32,000 nt of DNA, taken from positions 30,001-62,000 of the forward strand of contig NQJD01000008.1 in assembly GCA_004284765.1 (NCBI GenBank), in the 5' to 3' direction. Shown in pieces: positions 5,817 to 32,000 of the stretch. How positions within the stretch are numbered: the stretch's first letter is position 1; every line of letters starts with the position of its first letter. Source of the DNA: Candidatus Electronema aureum (GTDB lineage Bacteria; Desulfobacterota; Desulfobulbia; Desulfobulbales; Desulfobulbaceae). A model generated the notes under the pieces. That model was given only the letters and a program-made list of their open reading frames with translations. It had not been told where the DNA came from and did not search any database. The position numbers and the translations under genes are program-made.

Positions 5817-7400
5817 ATGAACACTAAAAACATCGCCGTCATCGGCACAGGCTACTGGGGCAAGAACCTTGTCCGCAACTTCTACAACCTTGGCAGCCTG
5901 CACATGATCTGCGACAGCCGCCCAGAAGCGGTCAGCAGCTTTATGAGTCAGTATCCCGGTGTTCGCGGGGTGCAGGCCTTCAGTGAAGTGCTGGCGGATG
6001 ACGCGGTGCAGGGCGTTGCTCTTTCGACTCCGGCGGTTTCTCATGCCCTGTTAGCGCGCGAGGCTTTGTTAGCGGGCAAGGATGTGTATGTCGAAAAACC
6101 GCTTTGTCTGAGCGAAGAGGAAGGCGTGGAATTGATCGCGTTAGCAAAACAACAAGGCCGCATTCTGATGGTCGGCCATCTGCTCTGGTATCATGCGGCA
6201 GTGACCCGACTCAAGGAGTTGATTGATGCAGGTGAGCTGGGCAGGATTCAGTACATCTATTCTAACCGGCTGAATATAGGTAAGCTGCGGCGCGAGGAGA
6301 ACGTTCTCTGGTCATTCGCACCCCATGACATCTCTGTCATCCTTGGGCTGCTTGGCGAGATGCCAGAATCCATCCAAGCGCAAGGCGGTAACTATTTGCA
6401 CCGCAAGATCGCTGACACAACCGTGAGCTTACTCAACTTCGCCAGTGGAGTACGAGCGCACATCTTTGTTTCTTGGCTGCATCCCTTCAAAGAGCAGAAG
6501 CTCGTGGTAGTGGGTGAAGGCAAAATGGCGGTCTTTGATGACACGGTGCCTTGGTCGAAGAAATTAGCCCTGTATCCGCATTCAGTGGAGTGGTCTGGCA
6601 ACGTGCCGGTGGCGCATAAAGCAGAGGTGGAATACATCACCTTGGAGGAAAGCGAGCCGCTGCGGGCCGAGTGTCAGGCGTTTGTTGACGCAATTGCCTC
6701 GCGAAAACCGCCCTACACCGACGGCAAAGAAGGACTCAATGTGCTCAAAGTACTGAACCGCTGTCAGCAAGCTCTGGAAAGCGGAGCAACAGTCATCGTG
6801 GAGCAGCCTAAGGAGGAGAAAAACTACCAAGCTCATCCTACTGCGGTCATTGATAAAGCCGCAGTTATTGGTCAAGGTACGAATATTTGGCATTTCAGCC
6901 ATATTCTTGCTGGTTCTGAGATCGGCGCAGAATGTAGTATCGGTCAGAACGTGGTCATTGGCCCCAAAGCGCGGGTGGGTAAGGGTTGCAAGATTCAGAA
7001 CAACGTCTCTATCTATGAAGGCGTGACGCTGGAGGATTACGTCTTTTGCGGGCCGTCGATGGTCTTCACGAATGTCTATAATCCGCGCTGCGAGTTTCCA
7101 CGCAAGAATGAATATCGTCAGACCTTGGTCAAGCGAGGAGCAACGCTGGGAGCCAACTGCACGGTGGTCTGCGGGATAACCATTGGCAGCTACGCCTTTG
7201 TTGGCGCAGGCGCAGTCGTGAAAGACGATGTGCCGGACTTTGCCTTGATGGTTGGTTGCCCAGCTCGGCAGATCGGTTGGATGAGTCGTTTCGGCGAGCG
7301 ATTGGAACTGCCGTTGAGCGGCGACTGCGAAGTAGTTTGTCCGCACACTGGTGAGCGGTATCGCTTGGCTGACGGGAAGGTAAGTATTGTCAATGGATAA
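5817..7400 (+). CDS. fusion protein: Gfo/Idh/MocA sugar oxidoreductase (N-terminal) plus WbpD/WlbB-like hexapeptide N-acetyltransferase (C-terminal)
   Basis: The N-terminus has the Rossmann motif [12 protein letters not shown] and EKP. From about nt 6831 there is an LbH domain ([13 protein letters not shown]...[30 protein letters not shown]). It is a single uninterrupted 527-codon ORF. Confidence 0.8.
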
Positions 7401-8577
7401 GCAGCCTTTGAAGGTGCTGTTCCTGACCACCTCCTTTCCCCTGACAAGGGAATCACGGAGCGGTGTATTCATCCTCCGCATGATTGAGAATCTGCCCGCG
7501 CATATCCAACTAACGGTACTTACACCAGATGACAGCAGTACCCGACATTACACTGTTTCTGACCGTTACGCGCTGCTGCCTTTCCGTTATGCGCCGAAAA
7601 GCTGGCAAGGGCTGGCGCACGGAGACGGCGGCATCATGGCTGCGCTGGCGCAAAGCAGGTGGAATCTTCTGCTCATTGCGCCGCTGCTTTGTTCCTGCTT
7701 CCTTATGACCTGCTGGCACGCTCGCAAGGCGGATGTCATCCACGCTCATTGGTCCATCAACGGGCTGATTGCCGGAATAGTTGGGCTGCTCTGGAGGAAA
7801 CCAGTGATCACGACCCTGCGCGGCAGCGATGTTAATTCAGCAGCAACGTCTTGGTTGATGCGTCAATTAGCGGGCAGCTGTCTTAGTCACAGCAAATCCG
7901 TCGTTACTGTTAGTCCAGCTTTACGACAAGCACTGATTCAACAATTCCCGATTTACACGCACAAGATTAAAGTAGTTGCCAACGGCATAGCTCCGGCCTT
8001 TTTCATTGCTGGTGATACCAGAGCAGCAACAGATAGGACAGTGCATTTTCTTTATGCAGGCAATTTGATTGTAGGCAAGGGGGTGCAGGTGATTCTGGAG
8101 GCAGCAGCAGCTCTCTCTGCGGACAACTGGCTCTTAGACATTGTTGGCGAGGGGGCAGAGCGGGAAAATTTAGAAGCCTTTTGCCAAGAAAAGGGCTTGC
8201 AGAGCAAAGTACGCTTTCATGGCTCAGTTGCCCCAGAGCAGATGCCGGAGTTTATGCGGCGGGCGGATGTTTTTGTTTTTGCCAGCTTTGCTGAGGGTAG
8301 GCCCAACGTGGTGCTGGAGGCGATGGCAGCCGGTCTGCCCGTGCTGGCCAGCAGTATTCCGGCTGTGCAAGAGCTGATTGTTTCGGGCAAAGAAGGACTA
8401 CTTTTTCCGCCCGGCGATGCGCAGCTGCTGAGTGAACAGATGACGCGGCTTCTCAGTAATCCGACAGAGCTACGCAGCATCGGTGAGAACGCCCGCCGCA
8501 CAATCACCGCGTTGAACCTGAGCTGGCAGGAGACAGGCCGCCGCTACGCCGCGCTTTACGAGGAAGCAATCAATTAA
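7387..8577 (+). CDS. glycosyltransferase, GT4 (group 1) family
   Basis: The C-terminal domain carries the EX7E motif ([22 protein letters not shown]). It overlaps the upstream gene by 14 nt. An alternative ATG is at 7393. Confidence 0.85.
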
Positions 8578-12522: not shown

Positions 12523-12657
12523 ATGGAATATTGGCAAGAGATCAATAAGAAATTAATTCCTTGGATTGACACTTCGCTGAACAAGACAGTGCTTGATCTT
12601 TTTGCGGGCAGCGGCGGTCTTTCTCTTGGTTCTGAGGTAAACGCTTTAACATTATGA
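12523..12657 (+). pseudogene. N-terminal 44-codon remnant of a SAM-dependent (probably cytosine-5) DNA methyltransferase
   Basis: The fragment is MEYWQEINKKLIPWIDTSLNKTVLDLFAGSGGLSLGSEVNALTL*. DLFAGSGGLSLG is methyltransferase motif I. The reading frame ends 10 codons later, and its stop overlaps the next gene's ATG (ATGA). Confidence 0.5.
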
Positions 12658-13691
12658 ATAAAAGATATTCACGAACGGAAAGAATAGGAGTTAATGCGGT
12701 TGAAAGGATAGTGATTCAAGAATTAGGCTGGATATTCAGAGATCAGCCAATAGTTGACGTTGGCGTTGATGCAATAATTGAGCAGTGTGAAAATGGAAAT
12801 CCGACAGGAAAATTTATAGCTATTCAGATAAAATGCGGAGCGGGAAATTTCCATATTTCAGAGAAAAAGATAACTTATTACGATGTTTCGCATATTCATT
12901 ACCACTATTGGTTAGGACTTAATATTCCTATAATTTTAGTAGCACATCTACCAGATTCAGAAGAAACATACTGGCAGCACATCTGCAAAGATAATTTTAA
13001 GAAAACAGACACGAGATGGAAACTTGAAATACCAAAAAAACAGAGATTCGGAAAAGAATCAAAAGGAAAATTAACTCGTATCCTTTCAGAGAAAGGAAAA
13101 AGGAATTTTATTTTTGATTTATATTCAGGAAACATTGATGTTGAAAATGACGGTTTTGATTTTTTTGAAAAAGTAAATTGCATTGCTGAATCATCAATTT
13201 GTTTTGAAAATATCAGAAAGATATTTAATGATGCAGGAGAAAGAATAAATAAGTTTCACAGGGAAATATCGACAAGCAGTCATGATTACAAAATATATAT
13301 CAATGGCCTGTCGAGAGACTTTAATATCTATTCCAAAAGACTTGAATTTGAAATTGATATTTTTTCAAAATTATACCCGGAAGGATTCTTTGCTTATGAG
13401 CAATTTATTTTATTTAATTATTTAGTAAATAACGATACTGATCTGGTCAGAAATGCTGTTTATGAGCTAAACGAAACATCTAACGCTACTGATGAATTAA
13501 TAAAAGTCATATCATCATTAGAACATGCCATATCAGGATTTCATGAAGAATTTAAACCAATAGTAAATTGTTTTTTCGATATTTTAGGATTTATTCTCTT
13601 GGAATTATCTGAAGCGAGAGATATGACATCAGCACTGCTTCATAGAATTAACGAATATGCCCCCCATCACCAGCCTCCGCCAATATCTTGA
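12654..13691 (+). CDS. DUF4365-like (PD-(D/E)XK restriction-endonuclease fold) N-terminal domain fused to an unknown ~200-aa helical domain
   Basis: RIGVNAVERIVIQELGWIFRDQPIVDVGVDAIIEQ...KFIAIQIKCG fits the D...E/QxK nuclease core and my memory of the DUF4365 consensus. The gene is strongly AT-rich. Its last ~11 codons read into the duplicated ubiD 5' fragment. Confidence 0.7.
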   Translation: MNKRYSRTERIGVNAVERIVIQELGWIFRDQPIVDVGVDAIIEQCENGNPTGKFIAIQIKCGAGNFHISEKKITYYDVSHIHYHYWLGLNIPIILVAHLPDSEETYWQHICKDNFKKTDTRWKLEIPKKQRFGKESKGKLTRILSEKGKRNFIFDLYSGNIDVENDGFDFFEKVNCIAESSICFENIRKIFNDAGERINKFHREISTSSHDYKIYINGLSRDFNIYSKRLEFEIDIFSKLYPEGFFAYEQFILFNYLVNNDTDLVRNAVYELNETSNATDELIKVISSLEHAISGFHEEFKPIVNCFFDILGFILLELSEARDMTSALLHRINEYAPHHQPPPIS

Positions 13692-13719
13692 CATCCTCCG
13701 CCGCGAAGGCGAGCTGCTG
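13657..13719 (+). repeat. 63-bp direct repeat, copy A
   Basis: 59 of 63 positions are identical to 14449-14511 by my hand alignment. Confidence 0.85.
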
Positions 13720-13746
13720 GGACTGCGTCTGTTGATAACCAGCTAA
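13657..13746 (+). pseudogene. duplicated 5' fragment of the UbiD-family gene (29 codons)
   Basis: MPPITSLRQYLDILRREGELL... matches the MPPITNLRQFLDILRSEGELL start of the intact gene at 14449, then diverges to a stop. Confidence 0.8.
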
Positions 13747-13772
13747 CAGGCAAAGCAAAATTATTTTCTCGC

Positions 13773-14093
13773 ATGAACAAAGCGCATAAAGAACTACTCC
13801 GTCAATGTCTTGGTTTTGATTGGGACAAGGGGAATATCGAGAAAAATCAGATTAAACATAATGTCTCGCCATCAGAATGTGAGCAGGTATTTTTCAACAA
13901 TCCATTGCTGATTCATGATGATCTCCTGCATTCAGCAGAAGAAAAACGTTTTTATGCGCTTGGCCGCAGTGATCTGAACAGGACTCTTTTTGTTGTTTTC
14001 ACCATAAGGAACAGCATAATCAGAGTTATTTCCGCAAGAGACATGAGCCGCAAAGAAAGGAAGGCATACGGAGATGAAAAAGAAACCGCCTGA
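13773..14093 (+). CDS. brnT: BrnT-family (DUF497) toxin
   Basis: FDWDKGNIEKNQIKHNVSPSECEQVF...IRVISARDMSRKERKAY is the typical BrnT pattern. It overlaps the antitoxin gene by 20 nt. Confidence 0.85.
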   Translation: MNKAHKELLRQCLGFDWDKGNIEKNQIKHNVSPSECEQVFFNNPLLIHDDLLHSAEEKRFYALGRSDLNRTLFVVFTIRNSIIRVISARDMSRKERKAYGDEKETA

Positions 14094-14448: not shown

Positions 14449-14511
14449 ATGCCCCCCATCACCAACCTCCGCCAATTCCTTGACATCCTCCGCAGCGAAG
14501 GCGAGCTGCTG
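14449..14511 (+). repeat. 63-bp direct repeat, copy B (true 5' end of the UbiD-family gene)
   Basis: See copy A at 13657-13719. Confidence 0.85.
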
Positions 14512-20374: not shown

Positions 20375-23317
20375 GTGAGCGAACAGGAAAACTCGTCCTA
20401 CGGGGCGGATCAGATCAAGGTTCTTGACGGGCTTGAGGCGGTACGCAAACGTCCGTCCATGTATATCGGCAACACGGCGGAAGAGGGGCTGCATCACCTG
20501 ATTTATGAGGTGGTTGATAACTCCATCGACGAGGCATTGGCCGGCTGCTGTGACCGGATCAGGGTGATCCTCCTCGAAGACGGCTCCTGCTCAGTCGAAG
20601 ACAACGGACGCGGCATTCCGGTGGACAAGCATCCGACCGAAAACATGACCGCTCTTGAGCTGGTGCTGACCACGCTGCACGCGGGCGGCAAGTTCGATCA
20701 TTCGTCCTACAAGGTTTCCGGCGGCCTGCACGGCGTGGGTGTGTCAGTGGTCAATGCGCTCTCCACCCACGTGACCGCTGAGGTGCGGCGCAACGGCAAG
20801 CTCTACCGGCAGACTTTCTCCTACGGCGCGAAGACCAGCGAGCTGGAAGTGGTCGGCACCAGCGAGCACACCGGCACCACCATCACCTTCAAGCCAGACC
20901 CGGAGATATTCACCCAGACCATTGCTTTCAAGTATGAGATCGTCCTCAACCGGTTGCGCGAGCTGGCCTTCCTCAACCGGGGCATTCACATTTCTCTGAA
21001 GGACGAGCAGAGCGGGGCTGAAGACCTCTTTCATTACGAGGGCGGCGTGGTTGAATACGTCGAGCACCTTAACCGCAACCGCACCCCGATTCATCCCCAG
21101 CCGATCTTTCTTGAAGGCGAGCAGGAGCAGGTGCAGGTTGAGGTCTGTCTGCAATACGTTGACAGCTACACCGAGCGGCTGGCCTCCTTTGTCAACAACA
21201 TCAACACGCGCGAAGGCGGCTCGCATGTGGCAGGTTTCCGCGCCGCGCTGACCAAGTGCATCAACAAGTACGCCACCGACGACATTGTGCCCAAGCACAT
21301 GAAGGAGAAGATGGAGGGCGACGATGTGCGCGAGGGGCTGACTGCGATCATTTCGGTGCGGGTGCCGAATCCGCAGTTTGAGGGTCAGACCAAGACCAAG
21401 CTGGGCAACTCCGAGGTGAAGGGCATTGTCGCTTCCATCTGCACCGAGCAGCTTGGTGATTATTTGGAGCGCAACCCGCAGGTGGCGCGGCAGATACTCA
21501 GCAAGGCGGTTGAGGCGGCGCGGGCCAGAGAAGCGGCGCGGAAGGCGCGGGATTTGTCACGCAAGAAGGACGGCATTTCTCTGCTGATGGCAGGCAAGCT
21601 GGCAGAATGCCAGTCGAAGAATCCGGCGGAGCGGGAGCTGTTTCTCGTGGAGGGCGATTCGGCGGGCGGCTGCTTTTCTGGCGAGACCAAAGTGGCTTTG
21701 GCTGATGGCCGCGCCTTGAGCTTTTTGGAGCTGATTGCCGAGCAGGAACAGGGGAAGGAGCATTTCTGCTACACCATTCAAGCTGACGGCAAGATTGGTC
21801 TGGAGCAAATTCTGCATCCGCGCCTGACTAAAAGGCAGCAAGAGGTTGTGCAAGTAACACTCGACAACGGCGAGCAGATTGTCTGCACACCCGATCACCG
21901 CTTCCTGCTCCGTGACGGGACGTATTGCCCGGCGGAACAGTTAGAGGCAGGCACCTCACTGATGCCGCTGTACCGCAAGCTGCCCGGCTCTGGCTGCGAA
22001 ATGATCTGGGAACCAAATGCTGGTCGCTGGAGATTCTTTGCTGATCAAGACGAATCAGCTTGGCAAGATGCGGAAGAAGAGGCTTTAGAAGCTGCTGCCG
22101 ACAACCACCGCGTTGTCTCCGTGGAAAAGCTGACCGAGCGTATCGATGTGTATGACATCGAAGTGCCGAACACGCACAACTTCGCTTTAGCCAGCGGCGT
22201 ATTTGTCCACAACAGTGCCAAGCAAGGCCGCGACCGCTCCATCCAAGCTATCCTGCCGTTGCGCGGCAAGATCATGAATGTGGAGAAAGCCCGCTTTGAC
22301 AAGATACTTGACTCTGAGGAGATCAAGCAGCTTATCGCCGCAATGGGCACCGGCATCGGGCGGGAGGAGTTTGACGCGAGCAAGCTGCGTTACCACAAGA
22401 TCATCATCATGACCGACGCGGACGTGGACGGCGCGCATATCCGAACTCTGCTCCTCACCTTCTTCTACCGCCAGATGCTGCCGCTGGTCGAGCAAGGCTA
22501 TGTTTATATCGGCCAGCCGCCGCTGTACCGCTTAGGCCGGGGCAAGAAGGAGCAGTATTTCCTCAATGAGGACGCGCTGAACAGCCACCTTTACGACCAA
22601 GCGGCGCAGTTTGTGCAAGTCCGCTTGGAGAACGGCAGCGTGCTGGCCGGGCAAGAGTTAGTCAGTTTGTTGAAGAAGCTCACCCTGTTCGAGCGCATCA
22701 GCACCTTCTTGGAACGGATGAACATTCAGGAGCAGCTCACCCTCTTCCTGCTTGAAAACGATGTGCATTCTGCCGATCAGTTTAAGGAGGAGGCGTTCCT
22801 GCACGGGCTGCTGGATAAGCTCGCCAGCATTGATGCGGTCACGAGCGGCATCCGCGTCTGCGCGACCCGGCCCAGTTGCTTTGAGGCGGAGGCGGCCTTT
22901 CAAGGCTTGGCCCACACCCGCGCGGTCATCGGGCCGCACATCCCGCTGATTCCCGAATATCGCCACGCTCTTGAGCTGCATCCTGCAATCAGGCAGTTCC
23001 TCGGCAGCGGCTTCACGGTCATCAAGGGCGAGGAGAAGGAGATTCCGGCGAAGAACTGGCGCGAGCTGATCCGCGTGGTGCGCGAGGAAACCTTCAAGGG
23101 CAGCCACTTGCAGCGCTACAAGGGTTTGGGCGAGATGAACCCGGAGCAGCTTTGGGAAACGACCATGAATCCGGCCAACCGCACCCTGCTGCGCGTCAGG
23201 ATTGAGGATGCTGAGGCTGCCGATGATCTTTTTGTCACCCTGATGGGCGATAAGGTGGAGCCACGGCGCGAGTTTATCCAGAATCATGCGCTGGAGGTTT
23301 CGGAGCTGGATGTGTGA
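20375..23317 (+). CDS. gyrB: DNA gyrase subunit B, interrupted by an in-frame mini-intein
   Basis: GTG start. Motifs present are YGADQIKVLDGLEAVRKRPSMYIG, YEVVDNSIDEA, GLHGVG, EGDSAGG|...|SAKQGRDR, PLRGKIMNVE, DADVDGAHI and YKGLGEMNPEQLWETTM. The ORF is 980 aa, or 799 aa without the intein. Confidence 0.95.
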   Translation: MSEQENSSYGADQIKVLDGLEAVRKRPSMYIGNTAEEGLHHLIYEVVDNSIDEALAGCCDRIRVILLEDGSCSVEDNGRGIPVDKHPTENMTALELVLTTLHAGGKFDHSSYKVSGGLHGVGVSVVNALSTHVTAEVRRNGKLYRQTFSYGAKTSELEVVGTSEHTGTTITFKPDPEIFTQTIAFKYEIVLNRLRELAFLNRGIHISLKDEQSGAEDLFHYEGGVVEYVEHLNRNRTPIHPQPIFLEGEQEQVQVEVCLQYVDSYTERLASFVNNINTREGGSHVAGFRAALTKCINKYATDDIVPKHMKEKMEGDDVREGLTAIISVRVPNPQFEGQTKTKLGNSEVKGIVASICTEQLGDYLERNPQVARQILSKAVEAARAREAARKARDLSRKKDGISLLMAGKLAECQSKNPAERELFLVEGDSAGGCFSGETKVALADGRALSFLELIAEQEQGKEHFCYTIQADGKIGLEQILHPRLTKRQQEVVQVTLDNGEQIVCTPDHRFLLRDGTYCPAEQLEAGTSLMPLYRKLPGSGCEMIWEPNAGRWRFFADQDESAWQDAEEEALEAAADNHRVVSVEKLTERIDVYDIEVPNTHNFALASGVFVHNSAKQGRDRSIQAILPLRGKIMNVEKARFDKILDSEEIKQLIAAMGTGIGREEFDASKLRYHKIIIMTDADVDGAHIRTLLLTFFYRQMLPLVEQGYVYIGQPPLYRLGRGKKEQYFLNEDALNSHLYDQAAQFVQVRLENGSVLAGQELVSLLKKLTLFERISTFLERMNIQEQLTLFLLENDVHSADQFKEEAFLHGLLDKLASIDAVTSGIRVCATRPSCFEAEAAFQGLAHTRAVIGPHIPLIPEYRHALELHPAIRQFLGSGFTVIKGEEKEIPAKNWRELIRVVREETFKGSHLQRYKGLGEMNPEQLWETTMNPANRTLLRVRIEDAEAADDLFVTLMGDKVEPRREFIQNHALEVSELDV
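21671..22213 (+). mobile_element. 181-codon mini-intein in the GyrB Toprim motif
   Basis: It begins with CFSGETKV (block A Cys), contains TPDHRF (block B TxxH), and ends VYDIEVPNTHNFALASGVFVHN followed by the +1 Ser. Removing it restores EGDSAGG-SAKQGRDR exactly. There is no room for a homing endonuclease domain. Confidence 0.9.
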
Positions 23318-24421: not shown

Positions 24422-25288
24422 ATGGAAAAACTCATCCGCTTTGATTGGGCCATCAAAAAGCTCCTGCGCGACAAGGCCAACTTTTCCGTGCTGGAAGGCT
24501 TTCTCAGCGCAGTGCTGAATGAAGACGTGACCGTGGTCAATCTCTTGGAGAGCGAAAGCAATCAAGAGGACAGCTTCGACAAATTCAACCGCGTTGATCT
24601 GCTGGTTGAAAACAGCAAGAAAGAGCTGCTGCTGATTGAAGTGCAAGTGAAATCGGAATACGACTTCTTCCATCGTATCGCCTACGGTGTCGCCAAACTG
24701 ATGAGCGAATACTTGGAAAAAGGGCAGCCGTACCGCGAAATCAAAAAGATCATCTCGGTCAGCATCACCTATTTCAGCCTTGGCATTGGCACGGATTATC
24801 TCTATTACGGCTCGACTAATTTTGTCGGCCTGCATACCGGCGACATCCTCGCGCTGACCGAGAAACAGCAGGAGCTGTTCGGCATCAGCGAAGTGCGGAA
24901 GATTTTCCCTGAGCACTATCTCATCCGGGTGGAGGATTTTCCTGACAAAGTGCAGTCTGCGCTCGATGAATGGATTTACATGCTGAAGCACAGCGAGGTG
25001 CGGCCTGACTTCAGAGCCAAGCATATTCAAGAAGCCTCAGCGCGGCTGCGGATTATGAATCTGGACGAGCCGCAGCGGAAAGCCTATGATGAATACATGC
25101 AGAATGTCTCGTATCAGCAGTCCATGCTCTGGTCTTCCCGTGAAGAGGGTAAACACGAGGAGAAAATTGCCATTGCCAGAAATCTGCTGGCGCATGGCAT
25201 TGCGCTGGAGGTTATCGCCGCCAGCACAGGCTTGTCCAGCGGGGAGATAGCCACTTTGCAAAAAGGAGAAGACCATGCAGTTCCTTGA
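24422..25288 (+). CDS. Rpn-family / PD-(D/E)XK (PDDEXK_2, putative-transposase-type) nuclease
   Basis: FNRVDLLVENSKKELLLIEVQVK gives the D...ExQ/K nuclease core. The family-typical C-terminal tail is IAIARNLLAHGIALEVIAASTGLS. Confidence 0.75.
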   Translation: MEKLIRFDWAIKKLLRDKANFSVLEGFLSAVLNEDVTVVNLLESESNQEDSFDKFNRVDLLVENSKKELLLIEVQVKSEYDFFHRIAYGVAKLMSEYLEKGQPYREIKKIISVSITYFSLGIGTDYLYYGSTNFVGLHTGDILALTEKQQELFGISEVRKIFPEHYLIRVEDFPDKVQSALDEWIYMLKHSEVRPDFRAKHIQEASARLRIMNLDEPQRKAYDEYMQNVSYQQSMLWSSREEGKHEEKIAIARNLLAHGIALEVIAASTGLSSGEIATLQKGEDHAVP

Positions 25289-26177
25289 CGTGAAAACCGA
25301 CTTCGCCTTCAAGCGGGTCTTTGGCAGCGAGCAGTCAAAAGGCATCCTGATTGACTTCCTCAACGCCATCATTGACTTCGGTGATGAGAGAATCACCGAT
25401 CTGACCATCGTTGATCCCTATCAAGTACCGCCGCTGAAAGGCATGAAGGACAGCTATGTTGATGTGAAGGCGGTGCTGTCTAATCGCGCCAAAGTCATCA
25501 TCGAGATGCAGGTGCTCAATGTCGAAGGCTTCGAGAAGCGGGTGCTGTATAATGCCGCAAAGCTCTACTCCTCACAGCTCAGACGCTCGCAGCAGTACGC
25601 GGGACTGGAGCCGGTCATCGCCCTGACCATCACCGACTTCGAGATGTTCAAGGATTTCGACAAGGTGATTTCCTATTGGAACCTGCGTGAGAAGGAGCAG
25701 CTTGTTCAGTACAGCGACGAGATCGAGCTGATCTTTGTTGAGCTGCCTAAGTTCAAGAAAGGCGAGGACGAGCTGCACACGGTCATGGACAAATGGATTT
25801 ACTTCATCAAAAACGCAGGCGCGCTCGACTTTATTCCCAAGACCTTCACCGAGCCGCCGCTGCTTGAAGCCTTTGATCTGGCCAACACCGCCGCCCTGAG
25901 CGAGGAGGAGCTGGAAGTGCAGTTCAAACGCCGGGACTTCATCATGCTCCAGCAGGGTGCTTTGATGAAGGCGGAGAAGGACGGGTTGGCGAAGGGTATG
26001 GAAAAGGGACTGCAAGAGGGAATGGAGGCTGGCATTAAGGAAGGTGTGAAAGAAGGAAAGCGCGAGGCAAAACTTGCCATCGCCCGCAGCCTGCTGGCGC
26101 ATGGCATTACGCTGGAGGTCATCGCTGCCAGCACAGGCTTGTCTGGCGATGAGCTGGCCAGCTTGCAGGAACAATAA
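25275..26177 (+). CDS. Rpn-family recombination-promoting nuclease / putative transposase (second divergent paralogue)
   Basis: MQFLDVKTDFAFKRVFG..., SYVDVKAV...VIIEMQV core and a repeated E/K/G-rich segment are followed by the tail LAIARSLLAHGITLEVIAASTGLS. It overlaps the upstream paralogue by 14 nt. Confidence 0.8.
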   Translation: MQFLDVKTDFAFKRVFGSEQSKGILIDFLNAIIDFGDERITDLTIVDPYQVPPLKGMKDSYVDVKAVLSNRAKVIIEMQVLNVEGFEKRVLYNAAKLYSSQLRRSQQYAGLEPVIALTITDFEMFKDFDKVISYWNLREKEQLVQYSDEIELIFVELPKFKKGEDELHTVMDKWIYFIKNAGALDFIPKTFTEPPLLEAFDLANTAALSEEELEVQFKRRDFIMLQQGALMKAEKDGLAKGMEKGLQEGMEAGIKEGVKEGKREAKLAIARSLLAHGITLEVIAASTGLSGDELASLQEQ

Positions 26178-26664: not shown

Positions 26665-29184
<2,520 letters not shown>

Positions 29185-29195
29185 TACCCGCCGCT

Positions 29196-29226
29196 GTATG
29201 GGCGGTTCGCCGCGAACCGCCCATAC
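29196..29226. terminator. 14-bp perfect GC-rich hairpin between the convergent gyrA and the 29250-29561 gene
   Basis: GTATGGGCGGTTCG - CCG - CGAACCGCCCATAC. There is no clear U-tract on either strand. Confidence 0.4.
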
Positions 29227-29584: not shown

Positions 29585-30124
29585 TTATGCGCCGCTGTCT
29601 CGCTTTTGCTCTGCGACGTTCCCGGTGTCCTTCGGGGCAGCTTGGTTCTCAGTATCTGTCTTGACGGTCTGGCTCCACTTCTGACTGGATGCGCTGAGAA
29701 CAGCTTGCAGCTGGGCGAAACATTCGTCAAGCTGATCATTAGTAAGACCATCCGGCCCGCAGTATTCGAGTTTGCGGCGCATGTCGCAGAGCATATGGAA
29801 GATTCTCCGCTCAAGCATCCACAGTTCGGACGGCTTGTGGATAGTTTCCACAGCGACGACGACATTGGCTGCGGTCGTGACAGCAACGATGGCGAAACCG
29901 ACAGCGTCATGGTGGTCGGGGAGAACAAGGCTCGCGCTGCCAAGGACAGTGGCCAGAGCTGTCAGTCCTAAAGCGGCGTAGTGGAGCCAACGGTACAGAC
30001 GCTTGTGACCCGTGGACTCATTGCCAAAATGAGTGATCTCTTTCTCGATCTGACAGAGCAGACGCTTGCGCTTGTCAGTTATGCTGCCGCAGTCTTCGCT
30101 GTCTTTACAGTCTTTCTTTTCCAT
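29585..30124 (-). CDS. two-TM protein, SLATT/DUF4231-like (tentative)
   Basis: The ATG at 30124 has GAGAGGGGG 7 nt upstream and lies downstream of the predicted promoter. A TM hairpin (WLHYAALGLTALATVLGSASLVL / VGFAIVAVTTAANVVVAVETI) is followed by an ELWMLERRIFHMLCDMRRKLEY helix. Confidence 0.55.
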   Translation of the reverse strand: MEKKDCKDSEDCGSITDKRKRLLCQIEKEITHFGNESTGHKRLYRWLHYAALGLTALATVLGSASLVLPDHHDAVGFAIVAVTTAANVVVAVETIHKPSELWMLERRIFHMLCDMRRKLEYCGPDGLTNDQLDECFAQLQAVLSASSQKWSQTVKTDTENQAAPKDTGNVAEQKRDSGA

Positions 30125-30145: not shown

Positions 30146-30173
30146 ATTATCACTCAAGACCGGCTGTTGTCAA
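30146..30173 (-). promoter_or_regulatory. sigma70-type promoter for the SLATT-like operon
   Basis: On the minus strand: TTGACA (30173-30168), a 16-nt spacer, then GATAAT (30151-30146). Confidence 0.5.
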
Positions 30174-30253
30174 ACTGAATCCTCAGCAGAGACGATGGTT
30201 GCCCGACCTGAGCAGGCGGTTCTGTCCCCAGCAGCCCGCAGGCACCCTCTGCC

Positions 30254-30364
30254 GGAGACACTACGGTGTCTCCAGTGGAGATACTAGGGTCACTCAGGGG
30301 GAGACACTATAGTGTCTCGGTGGGAGATACCGTAGTGTCTCTGACGGAGATACCATAGTGTCTC
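30254..30364. repeat. 5 x 23-bp tandem palindromic operator-like units, GGAGAYAC-N4-GTGTCTC
   Basis: Units start at 30254, 30277, 30300, 30323 and 30346, an exact 23-bp period. The centres are TACG, TAGG, TATA, CGTA and CATA. Unit 2 has a degenerate right arm, GTCACTC. Confidence 0.9.
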
Positions 30365-30372
30365 TTTTTGCG

Positions 30373-30386
30373 TCTCCAGCTGGAGA
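30373..30386. promoter_or_regulatory. 14-bp perfect palindrome TCTCCAGCTGGAGA next to the array
   Basis: It is built from the outer part of the array half-site (GGAGA / TCTCC) in the opposite relative orientation. Confidence 0.6.
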
Positions 30387-30427: not shown

Positions 30428-30456
30428 TTGACAAAGACAGATATGCTGAGTAATAA
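30428..30456 (+). promoter_or_regulatory. sigma70-type promoter for the 2TM-TPR / caspase-like operon
   Basis: TTGACA (30428-30433), a 17-nt spacer, then TAATAA (30451-30456). Confidence 0.45.
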
Positions 30457-30511
30457 ATGTCTTTTCAGCTGTCATGCGCTGTATGTCATAATGAAAGATC
30501 ACTGAGGCGTT

Positions 30512-31201
30512 ATGGATCATCTCGTAGTAGTGGGGTTTCTCGTCTATGCGGCACTGTTTCGCTTGGCGATTATCGCCACAGGCGTTGCAGCTATCGTCCT
30601 CGGATACAAGCTGTTCTTGCGCGGCGTAATGGGCGAAGGCGGGACAAACGTCAACGCTGAGGCAGGGCCGATCAAGTTGACGCTTCATAACGCCGGGCCA
30701 GGCGGAGTCTTTGCGCTGTTCGGCGCGGGTATTATCATAGTCATGCTTTCGCAGGGCAGCCCGGAACTCTTGATGAAGGATATGTCTCAGCTGACTGTAT
30801 CTCCTCCTGATATGAACCAAAAGCCTGCGCATCAACAAGCATCTCAGCCTGAAAAAAGAGATGTGAGTACTGCTCTTCAAATACGCGGCGAAAATAACGA
30901 TGACAAAGAGTGGAGCAAGCTAAATGAAAATGTAACCATGTCTGAAGCAGCAGAACCGTTGAGCAGCATTGCTCGTGTTTGGCTACAAGAAAAACGTACA
31001 GGTGAAGCTGTGGCAATGGCAAGATTGGCAGCATTTTATGGTTCGGAGAAGGATAAAGCAAACTATCATGCGCTGCTCGGTGAAGCGCTTTTTGAAAATG
31101 GCGATAAACAGAATGCTGTTAGTGCAATGCAAAAGGCGGCAGAGCGCGATCCACTTTATCGTGCGGCTTTAGCTCGAATGCAAGAACGTTTAGCAGAATG
31201 A
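30512..31201 (+). CDS. membrane protein with two TM segments and a TPR-like C-terminal region
   Basis: The hydrophobic segments are VVVGFLVYAALFRLAIIATGVAAIVLGY and GGVFALFGAGIIIVML. The C-terminal ALLGEALFENGDKQNAVSAMQKAAERDP fits the TPR consensus. Confidence 0.65.
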   Translation: MDHLVVVGFLVYAALFRLAIIATGVAAIVLGYKLFLRGVMGEGGTNVNAEAGPIKLTLHNAGPGGVFALFGAGIIIVMLSQGSPELLMKDMSQLTVSPPDMNQKPAHQQASQPEKRDVSTALQIRGENNDDKEWSKLNENVTMSEAAEPLSSIARVWLQEKRTGEAVAMARLAAFYGSEKDKANYHALLGEALFENGDKQNAVSAMQKAAERDPLYRAALARMQERLAE

Positions 31202-31215
31202 GAGGATTAGAGAAA

Positions 31216-32000
31216 ATGGGTTGGTATAAGCAAAGGCAAGTCTTGTCGGTTCGGCTCGTGCTGCTTTTCGTTTTCCTTATGACAACAGCGGCAGTAAAAG
31301 AAGAGGCTGTCGCATCAAGTTTTGGTCGCTATCATGCTGTGGTGATTGGAAACCAAAACTATCAATATCTTGAGAAGTTGAACACACCTCTGAACGATGC
31401 ACGGGATATTGCACGGATATTGGAACAGCAGTACGATTTCAACGTGACGTTATTGCTGGATAAGAAGCGCGACGAGACAATGCGTTCCTTGTCAGAATTG
31501 CGTAGAACTATGGCCAAAGAAGATAATTTACTTATCTATTATGCTGGTCATGGAATTTTAGATGAAGATACTGATGTCGGCTACTGGCAGCCGATTGATG
31601 CTGACGATAGTGTTGTTAATTGGATTCCCTTTACTGATCTGATCACCTTGCTCAAAGGTCTTCAGGCGAACCATATTTTAGTAATTGCGGATTCCTGCTT
31701 CGCCGGTGCTCTTCAGATGACCAGAAACTCTGGGGCGGCTCTTGATTACGGCTCAGAGAGTTGGTTGCGTCGAATGCGTGAAAAGAAATCACGTACTGCT
31801 CTCACATCAGGCGGGATCGAAGATGTACTTGATGGAGGAGGTGGCAATCACTCGATTTTTGCAAAGGCTATCATTGATACATTACGAGAGAATAATACGA
31901 TATTGGATGGGCAAAGTCTATTTGATCAGGTCAAGCTGTTAGTTGTTAACAAGGCTGCTCAAACTCCAAACTATGATCCTATACGACTGACTGGCCACGA
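31216..32000 (+). CDS. caspase-fold (peptidase C14) protein with an N-terminal signal/anchor, 3' end outside window
   Basis: It is not in the ORF track because there is no stop before the window end. I translated it by hand and found no stop in 261 codons. Motifs are HAVVIGNQNYQYLEKLNTPLNDARDIA, YYAGHG (catalytic His) and LVIADSCFAG (catalytic Cys). The N-terminus is VLSVRLVLLFVFLMTTAAV. Confidence 0.85.
   Translation, partial: MGWYKQRQVLSVRLVLLFVFLMTTAAVKEEAVASSFGRYHAVVIGNQNYQYLEKLNTPLNDARDIARILEQQYDFNVTLLLDKKRDETMRSLSELRRTMAKEDNLLIYYAGHGILDEDTDVGYWQPIDADDSVVNWIPFTDLITLLKGLQANHILVIADSCFAGALQMTRNSGAALDYGSESWLRRMREKKSRTALTSGGIEDVLDGGGGNHSIFAKAIIDTLRENNTILDGQSLFDQVKLLVVNKAAQTPNYDPIRLTGH

Follow-up and report, generated by a model that had tools for sequence, protein, structure and literature searches.

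The window, by which is meant the whole 32,000-nucleotide stretch of Candidatus Electronema aureum DNA that was analysed, is ordinary chromosome, in which gyrA is accompanied by an intein-containing gyrB, a hemerythrin gene and two Rpn-like PDDEXK_2 genes, as well as by lipid A, fatty-acid and cell-wall genes and a gene for an HU-like protein. The closest GyrA proteins, at 78-97% identity, came from metagenomes and from Ca. Electrothrix MAGs. Downstream of gyrA an intergenic array of short palindromes lies between two divergent promoters, and its surroundings are as follows (numbers with the prefix L denote the contigs and loci compared throughout).

26665..29184, plus strand: gyrA, a conserved core gene upstream of the array (Pfam)
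29585..30124, minus strand: leftward flanking gene, 179 aa, weakly matching DUF4231 (SLATT-like) below the threshold; absent at the orthologous loci
30146..30173, minus strand: sigma-70-like promoter of the leftward gene, TTGACA-16-GATAAT, 11/12 matches (promoter scan)
30429..30457, plus strand: candidate promoter for the gene to the right, TTGACA and TAATAA with a 17-nt spacer, read from the sequence
30512..31201, plus strand: rightward flanking gene, 229 aa, with weak sub-threshold TPR matches
31216..32000, plus strand: first part of a caspase-like (Peptidase_C14) gene, which continues beyond the window (gene calls on L001-L003)

The rightward candidate promoter (TTGACA at 30429) has a weak -10 hexamer, TAATAA, and the promoter scan made no call there. 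The product of the 229-aa gene, which is present on same-strain Logan contigs, appears by eye to have hydrophobic segments at its N-terminus, and the gene at 31216..32000 gave a PADLOC caspase match of 2.9e-9.

Five units are arranged head to tail in an exact 23-bp phase, starting at 30254, 30277, 30300, 30323 and 30346 and spanning 30254-30364, just as an earlier sequence-only reading of this DNA had described. They are preceded by a leader and followed by a perfect 14-bp palindrome, which the same reading had also pointed out.

30219..30253, plus strand: leader preceding unit 1, GTTCTGTCCCCAGCAGCCCGCAGGCACCCTCTGCC
30254..30272, plus strand: unit 1, GGAGACAC-TACG-GTGTCTC; matrix score 30.3 bits; hairpin -15.6 kcal/mol
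30277..30295, plus strand: unit 2, GGAGATAC-TAGG-GTCACTC; matrix score 25.3 bits; hairpin -1.7 kcal/mol
30300..30318, plus strand: unit 3, GGAGACAC-TATA-GTGTCTC
30323..30341, plus strand: unit 4, GGAGATAC-CGTA-GTGTCTC, with its centre in mirror orientation
30346..30369, plus strand: unit 5, GGAGATAC-CATA-GTGTCTC followed by TTTTT; hairpin -9.1 kcal/mol; listed by the terminator scan
30373..30386, no strand assigned: 14-bp palindrome TCTCCAGCTGGAGA, resembling a unit-to-unit junction (..TCTCC-AGT-GGAGA..)

Tandem Repeats Finder reported the array with a period of 23, 4.8 copies and a score of 94. When up to two mismatches were allowed, the pattern GGAGAYAC-N4-GTGTCTC gave 9 strand-hits in the window, every one of them inside the array, against a mean of 0.03 in the shuffle control, where 0/100 shuffles reached 9. 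A weight matrix trained only on 50 units from other loci (maximum 32.3 bits) scored the five window units at 25-31 bits, and the next-best site in the 32 kb reached 6.8 bits. The same matrix gave no unit score to the 14-bp palindrome at 30373-30386, which L087 retains in part (TGCCAAGCTGGAGA) and L007, L006 and L093 lack. Relic units that had been suggested by eye in the leader and beyond the T-run were likewise without support in the weight-matrix scan.

The consensus proposed from the letters alone, GGAGA(C/T)AC-N4-GTGTCTC, fits 4/5 units but not unit 2, which has GTCACTC as its right arm and as a unit is without self-complementarity. This arm is the second commonest in the family (11/55 units), and a unit of the same type was found at the equivalent place in L006 and L087. 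GTCACTC in unit 2 is a standard, recurrent family allele rather than a random lesion. The centres, on the other hand, had been taken to vary freely, which was not borne out: across 55 units they are mostly TATG, TACG, CATA, CGTA or TATA, and most fit TAYG or, in mirror orientation, CRTA, both being versions of a single Y-R-Y-R core.

The sequence-only reading had left it to a search of the genome and its relatives whether the motif is unique to this locus. It is not, as the module recurs in unrelated intergenic regions of related genomes, and the array represents one member of a small repeat family that Electronema-like cable bacteria carry at several places in the chromosome. When 185,579 species, each represented by one genome, were scanned with a two-unit pattern for which our own estimate gave about 0.3 chance matches, 5 loci were found, all in Desulfobulbaceae / Ca. 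Electronema. One was in Ca. Electronema sp. TJ, one in Desulfobulbaceae UBA5173 and three in Desulfobulbaceae MAG S01.Bin068, where they lie on separate contigs and cover all three of the chromosomal positions described below. A metagenome scan contributed three additional arrays, its other six matches being unrelated repeats: L084, L088 and L090 are 21-bp repeats, and L086/L089 and L091 share the motif only. Two more arrays, L093 and L094, were obtained from close GyrA relatives (the L094 array also on contigs L095 and L096), in strains with 96-97% identical GyrA. All DNA relatives of the array belong to Desulfobulbaceae or Ca. Electronema, that is, to cable bacteria. Among viral contigs the two-unit scan gave zero matches; a single-unit scan gave 75 isolated matches and no arrays, and these were judged to be at chance level.

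Within the lineage the occurrence is uneven. The region after gyrA has no array in Electrothrix (gyrA-gpsA) or in a relative whose GyrA is 88% identical, and contigs L098 and L099 stop too near gyrA for the presence of an array to be judged. Two closed genomes, those of Ca. Electronema sp. VV and Ca. E. halotolerans, have no array at gatB, a place taken there by an IS1 element and a restriction-modification pair. The TIR + beta-helix protein encoded beside some arrays was tried as a route to further loci and abandoned, the family being spread across many phyla with no usable cable-bacterium paralogues. Strict-pattern matches amounted to at most three loci per representative genome, a count made on MAGs with the strict pattern, which divergent or contig-end arrays would escape. 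Outside the arrays the motif was found only twice, as a solo unit in L006 and as a weak solo palindrome in L007, in the approximately 165 kb searched, which comprised the window and loci L004-L008, L085, L087, L092 and L097-L104 and represents the array-bearing clade and related cable bacteria. Three Logan assemblies of the same strain have their breaks exactly at unit 5, and there may therefore be further copies in that genome. The family is low-copy, patchy and lineage-restricted. Literature searches found no description of such a repeat in cable bacteria, and what is reported here is an undescribed family of interspersed intergenic palindromic repeats in these organisms.

All 11 arrays are intergenic and are built of 19-20-bp palindromes. 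Each copy is a module in which a leader of about 35 nt is followed by 4-7 units, the last two of them forming good hairpins. The units follow one another head to tail at 23 bp, except for three cases of 24 bp. The leader, which in the family ends in ..CYCTCTKSC, is homologous to the sequence before the array in L007, L006, L093, L004, L005, L008 and L085, and the BLAST alignment of L007 to the window begins at 30219. The order of the unit variants is also shared, window units 1-2 corresponding to units 3-4 of L006 and L087. Since leader, phase and variant order are common to the copies, the repeated entity is the whole module and not the single palindrome. Two types of flank were distinguished. 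Type I (window, L006, L007, L087, L093, L094) ends in TTTTT(T)GC or TTTTTTTAT, and type II (L004, L005, L008, L092, L085) has a conserved 60-nt segment abutting the stop codon of a TIR + beta-helix gene. The arrays occupy at least these three chromosomal positions:

Position A: downstream of gyrA (window, L006, L093, L094; possibly L087)
Position B: in the interval that separates the gatB promoter region from the 3' end of a TIR gene (L004, L005, L008, L092)
Position C: after an XerC-like gene and convergent with a TIR paralogue (L007)

L085 has the flank type of position B, but gatB was not seen beside its array. The L087 array, on a contig where no gyrA was seen, may belong to position C rather than A; it lies 1.8 kb upstream of a hisD promoter module, and the locus has a DUF104-PIN cassette in common with L006.

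Clustered short palindromes of this kind invite comparison with the REP/BIME elements of Enterobacteria and Pseudomonas, which likewise are imperfect, intergenic, lineage-specific, variable in number between strains and often 3' of genes, and which share with the array recognition by a sequence-specific protein (putative here) and a place at rearrangement hot spots. REPs occur in high copy number, bear GTAG or CGTC as an end tag, are arranged mainly as head-to-head or tail-to-tail pairs, with head-to-tail order rare, and are linked to RAYT genes (PMC3733652). Under such an explanation the units would be selfish palindromes, read as single-stranded hairpins and spread by a RAYT/IS200-like transposase, with incidental effects on mRNA 3' ends. 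The variable size of the clusters, their location at recombination junctions and their tendency to break short-read assemblies are all in keeping with this, as is the tolerance of mismatches in the middle of the stem, which REPs also show (PMC3733652). The array family nevertheless showed no more than three strict-pattern loci per representative genome, with its units in strict head-to-tail 23-bp phase, and only the solo unit of L006 and the weak solo site of L007 were found in addition. There is no GTAG/CGTC end tag, the units ending in GGAG / CTC(C) with GTAG only inside some centres, and no RAYT or other Y1 transposase was seen near any copy at the loci examined. Of the characters of REPs the imperfect extragenic palindrome was thus found, and high copy number, the end tag and head-to-head/tail-to-tail pairing were not. 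The sequence-only reading had reasoned that many unrelated intergenic copies would turn the array into a generic repetitive extragenic palindrome; recurrence elsewhere was indeed observed, but at a low copy number that is not REP-like. A REP/BIME origin was considered unlikely.

In general layout the module also recalls BOX of Streptococcus pneumoniae, which has the form boxA - boxB(n) - boxC with units of 45-59 bp and more than 100 copies. Both have a conserved head, a variable tandem middle and a conserved tail, are intergenic and can form hairpins. There is however no sequence relationship, and the units of the array are individually palindromic. Iterons and partition-site arrays of plasmids, with 4-7 repeats of about 22 bp, are similar in repeat number and period. 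Iterons are direct, non-palindromic repeats beside a rep gene and an AT-rich region, and a rep or par gene together with a plasmid or mobile-element context would be expected of such arrays, whereas the array is palindromic and stands at a conserved location in a chromosomal core context; a BLAST search of the array region against plasmids and phages gave no match.

The genes around the array turn over. The gyrA region of the window aligned at 89% to L006 and at 90% to L093, and similarity ended within about 25 bp past the stop codon. Despite this loss of flank similarity an array is found 0.2-1.6 kb downstream of gyrA in the window, L006 and L093. The interval between gyrA and the array contains two leftward genes in the window, one of them weakly SLATT-like, a DUF104-PIN pair, a solo unit and an MNT/HepT pair in L006, and no genes in L093 and L094. 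The array is followed by the gene with sub-threshold TPR matches and the caspase-like gene in the window, by a gene for a DUF4469 protein in L093 and L094, and by NADAR and PRTase-CE genes in L087, of uncertain position. Downstream of gyrA the array is retained as an anchor in a neighbourhood where the genes on either side are replaced, among them PIN, MNT/HepT, TIR, caspase and NADAR genes.

The arrays themselves also change. In L006 an exact 36-bp direct repeat, CCCTCTGCC-GGAGACACCATAGTGTCTC-TTGC-GGAG, brackets the MNT/HepT segment of about 900 bp and covers the end of the leader, unit 1 and the start of unit 2, and the L087 array is without such an insertion. This duplication indicates that an insertion or crossover occurred inside the first units. 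Unit number varies from 4 to 7 per array, and the arrays of L093 and L094, despite the 96-97% GyrA identity of these strains, consist of a homogenised 46-bp super-repeat, AAAGACAC-CCTG-GTCKCTC, from which rapid turnover by slippage and conversion can be concluded.

These observations bear on a possible recombination or attachment site, in which the units would serve as crossover points for the insertion and exchange of accessory cassettes. An anchor conserved between replaced gene sets is what would be expected, the direct repeat around the L006 insert, with no counterpart in L087, resembles attL/attR, and a gene for an XerC-like recombinase is located directly upstream of the L007 copy. Only a single bracketed insertion was seen, however, and homologous recombination between paralogous arrays accounts equally well for the duplication in L006. 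The toxin-antitoxin insertion of L004 and the two leftward genes of the window have their boundaries away from the units, and no recombinase is consistently linked. The overlap region of tyrosine recombinases is longer than 4 bp, and the 4-bp centre is too short for it. Integron attC sites have R''/L''-L'/R' core sites (RYYYAAC...GTTRRRY), occur one per cassette and have a linked IntI; the units lack the GTTRRRY core, the arrays are not one per cassette and there is no intI. That the units are dedicated crossover sites was therefore held to be very unlikely.

As measured again here, the array is 81 bp from the -35 hexamer of the minus-strand promoter and 65 bp from that of the plus-strand one, in agreement with the distances given in the sequence-only reading. 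The locus-specific operator set for two divergent operons which that reading proposed did not stand up to comparison, since the module recurs in unrelated intergenic regions and the flanking genes are not conserved with it. At the orthologous arrays downstream of gyrA (L093, L094, L006) no minus-strand promoter or gene adjoins the array, no divergent promoter is found beside it in L087 (position uncertain), and at the gatB and xerC positions it lies between or beyond gene 3' ends. The two divergent promoters beside the array are a feature of the window genome only. Across the loci the flanks contain PIN, MNT/HepT, TIR, caspase, NADAR, PRTase-CE, XerC-like, gatB and gyrA genes, and no HTH or RHH protein is encoded beside any array examined.

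A dimeric regulator which cooperatively controls the promoters at 30173 (minus) and 30429 (plus), or loops between them, would still be in line with the symmetric 7-4-7 sites under base-identity constraint and with the distances to the two -35 hexamers. It could also draw on a -35 of the form TTGACAAA, which in the window as well as in L093 and L094 follows the array at a distance of 42-65 bp; GTTGACAAA of the rightward candidate promoter recurs at this distance in the latter two. A related promoter module precedes hisD in L007 and L087, and in L007 a solo family-type palindrome, GAGACAGCCTGCTGTCTC, is found about 40 bp upstream of it. Flanking genes which differ in every genome leave no conserved regulated target though, the leftward promoter and gene are missing elsewhere, the gatB and xerC arrays face gene 3' ends, and there is no linked regulator gene at any locus. 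Local control of the two promoters by the array was consequently regarded as quite improbable. Lambda OR/OL, where three operators of 17 bp lie at intervals of about 23-24 bp between divergent promoters, and Tn3 res are similar in presenting a row of symmetric dimer-type sites with a spacing of about 23 bp, and the window copy too has divergent promoters on its two sides. Those systems overlap the promoters they control, adjoin the gene of the binding protein and are single-locus, whereas the array stands 65-81 bp away, lacks a linked regulator and is repeated at unrelated loci. Half-sites defined by base identity were the one operator character found, and promoter overlap and a cognate regulator at the locus were not. 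A sigma-54 promoter or enhancer was also discarded, no correctly spaced GG-N10-GC being visible by eye in either flank.

Which property of the units is maintained was assessed from their variation. Positions G2, A3, G4, A7, C8, T14, C17 and T18 were invariant in 55/55 units (44 distinct sequences), a figure inflated by the fact that the units are related by descent, as orthologues or paralogues, and are not independent samples. C19 differs in one unit, and G13, the base needed for a full mirror image, is replaced by C in 10/44 distinct units. The constraint is not universal, as units of L093/L094 break the GAG/CTC invariants (AAAGACAC, GTCTCTT). In the five position-B-type copies 41-48% of the flanking intergenic columns vary, and the eight unit positions are invariant in 30/30 units. 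Positions 5 and 6 in the inner arm vary without compensation, pair 5:16 being unpaired in 20/44 distinct units and pair 6:15 in 16/44. The covariation score was 0.100, against 0.100 in shuffled data (243/500 shuffles were as high), the paired cells amounted to 83.2% versus 82.6% when shuffled, and mean within-unit pairing was 5.84/7 versus 5.82 with randomly re-paired arms. Invariance without covariation indicates that the constraint is on base identity in a symmetric half-site, GAGnnAC, and not on pairing. The pattern of the units probably favours recognition by a symmetric protein over selection on an RNA or DNA stem. The earlier view that the arms are conserved as for a dimeric DNA-binding protein and not as for an RNA loop is in this respect supported by the 55 units, so that the model it belonged to was partly right on the kind of constraint and wrong on uniqueness and target.

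Hairpins are best developed at the end of the module, where the last unit folds well in 11/11 arrays; of the internal units, 25/44 are weak (above -5 kcal/mol). A run of TTTTT follows the last unit in the window, L006, L007, L087, L093 and L094, with T5-T7 across type I, and the gatB-type arrays are without a T-run. Well-formed terminal units fold better on the plus strand by virtue of G-U pairs, at -8.5 versus -3.6 kcal/mol. In the window, unit 5 with its TTTTT looks like an intrinsic-terminator-like hairpin for rightward transcription. Co-oriented genes are situated upstream of the array in L006, L007, L087, L093 and L094, and the array end could thus terminate their transcription. In the window the genes left of the array are on the opposite strand, so that a terminator role there would concern read-through only, and the promoter scan found no obvious promoter reading into the array on either strand. 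A Rho-independent terminator is resembled in that the last unit of type I arrays folds into a hairpin of 8 bp with T5-T7 behind it; the difference is that one hairpin suffices for such a terminator, against 4-7 here, and that the gatB type has no T-run.

The polarity of the module, from leader over units to a terminator-like end, and the better plus-strand folding of its terminal units could alternatively point to a structured RNA, such as a multi-hairpin 3'-UTR element, a 3'-derived small RNA (possibly a protein sponge in which each unit supplies one motif) or an mRNA-stabilising block. Multi-repeat sponge RNAs have few paralogous copies and a variable repeat number, and in both respects the family is similar, with 1-3 paralogues at conserved sites and a number of repeats that differs between arrays. 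Such an RNA is nevertheless very doubtful given the absent covariation and the weak folding of most internal units. No conserved promoter precedes the leader, upstream sequences are unrelated between loci, and in the window there is no obvious promoter into the array. An Rfam search of the window region and ten related loci gave no match on the arrays, a sub-threshold mir-616 match being noise. A CsrA-type sponge in particular was dismissed on the ground that the first G of GGA is not conserved, as shown by units with TGAG and AGAG.

The explanation that best accounts for these observations as a whole, and which is put forward tentatively at a little short of an even chance, is a repeat module at core/cassette junctions that is read by an unlinked dimeric factor and works as a terminator or insulator. 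The module would have been inherited at fixed positions (gyrA, gatB, xerC) within a subclade of Ca. Electronema-like cable bacteria, and the surrounding accessory genes, among them toxin-antitoxin, TIR, caspase, NADAR and PRTase-CE genes, would have been exchanged around it. The putative factor, unlinked and acting genome-wide, would read the GAGnnAC half-sites, most likely on duplex DNA. As the half-sites alternate in orientation every 11-12 bp, adjacent dimers could coat about 110-160 bp. The terminal hairpin and its T-run would end rightward transcription and make the module a terminator in cis or an insulator block, and the number and sequence of units would change by slippage and conversion. 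Several ordinary explanations are compatible with the array, and we infer its function, including protein binding, a terminator or insulator role and any part in cassette exchange, from sequence comparison. In a bolder version of the preferred explanation, which we regard as rather unlikely, the arrays would be chromosomal landing pads for the dimeric factor, forming with it a nucleoprotein block that would mark and insulate the few sites of defence and toxin-antitoxin exchange and maybe promote exchange at the unit centres. Crossover at unit centres is hinted at by the duplicated 36 bp of L006.

Cable bacteria have not been brought into culture, and little is known about the biology of their genomes. 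Should the array merely represent decaying tandem copies of a terminator, it would still explain the breaks in assemblies and serve as a variable-number marker for strain typing, and in either case co-regulation of the two promoters of the window through the array is not to be assumed. If the preferred explanation is true, GAGnnAC-N4-GTnnCTC would be a defined bait for the binding factor, and the module would provide a compact and readily recognisable DNA signature of conserved sites where genes of conflict systems (TIR, caspase, SLATT-like, PRTase-CE and toxin-antitoxin) turn over in the genomes of cable bacteria.

The contigs L001-L003, three Logan assemblies made independently from short reads of the same strain, match the window with 0 mismatches over 1656 nt and run past its end. 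All three have window position 30345 as their position 1, the first base before unit 5 of the array. That three independent assemblies begin at exactly one base suggests a branch in the assembly graph, and such a branch in turn suggests either that this genome holds another copy of unit 5 with its T-run or that the population varies in length here.

Within the window, further features lie upstream of the array, as follows.

Window 12654-14093: low-GC islet, GC 0.34 versus about 0.54 elsewhere
Window 13657-13719 and 14449-14511: 63-bp direct repeat, 93.7% identity
Window 20375-23317, plus strand: gyrB with an intein (Intein_splicing domain, residues 452-613)
Window 24422-26177, plus strand: two tandem Rpn-like PD-(D/E)XK 'transposase' genes (PDDEXK_2), between gyrB and gyrA
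Window 29196-29226: near-perfect 31-bp inverted repeat with a GGGCGGTTCGCCGCGAACCGCCC core, shortly 3′ of the gyrA stop codon

In the islet lie the genes for a DUF4365 protein and for BrnT, a toxin. One copy of the 63-bp repeat overlaps the DUF4365 gene at its end and the other overlaps ubiD at its start, which suggests that DNA was inserted at the ubiD 5′ end. Further along, the Intein_splicing domain splits the Toprim region of gyrB, and no intein match was present in the 799-aa gyrB product of L099, a gyrA-region contig from a relative. The two PDDEXK_2 genes share an internal repeat of approximately 118 bp (25143-25260 versus 26050-26167, 80.5% identity) and are represented by one or two copies in relatives. 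The inverted repeat at the gyrA stop codon lacks a T-run and is kept in the related array-bearing loci L093 and L094.

Repeats of other kinds were encountered as well. The 21-bp repeat arrays (GGAGACACCGGGGTTTCTC-like) of the metagenome contigs L084, L088 and L090 occupy the entire contigs, about 1.3 kb, and are unrelated to the 23-bp palindrome family; since their period is divisible by 3, they may be coding. Past the window end, the gene 3′ of the caspase-like gene (L001 2205-2555) has a product with tandem GIGE(N/K)GGVT nonapeptide repeats.

Around the arrays of relatives, the following elements were located.

L093 5997-6045, L007 7682-7730 and L087 2684-2720: promoter module GCAACAATCCCRTTGACAAA...GCCGCGCTTTA
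L006 (reverse-complement coordinates) 6479-6514 and 7381-7416: exact 36-bp direct repeat that includes unit 1
L085 (reverse-complement coordinates) about 106-180: remnant, approximately 75 bp, from the 3′-terminal part of a TIR + beta-helix gene, left of the array

The promoter module lies 3′ of the array in L093 and before hisD in L007 and L087. In L087, module and hisD are separated by an inserted PIN-like gene, and a 60-nt segment 3′ of the module is duplicated at the contig start. The 36-bp repeats of L006 flank an MNT/HepT segment of approximately 900 bp, at the start of which 27 codons of a DUF104 antitoxin gene survive as a remnant. In L085, the remnant on the left of the array together with a full TIR + beta-helix paralogue on its right suggests that array-plus-TIR units once stood in tandem, or that such units recombined with each other.
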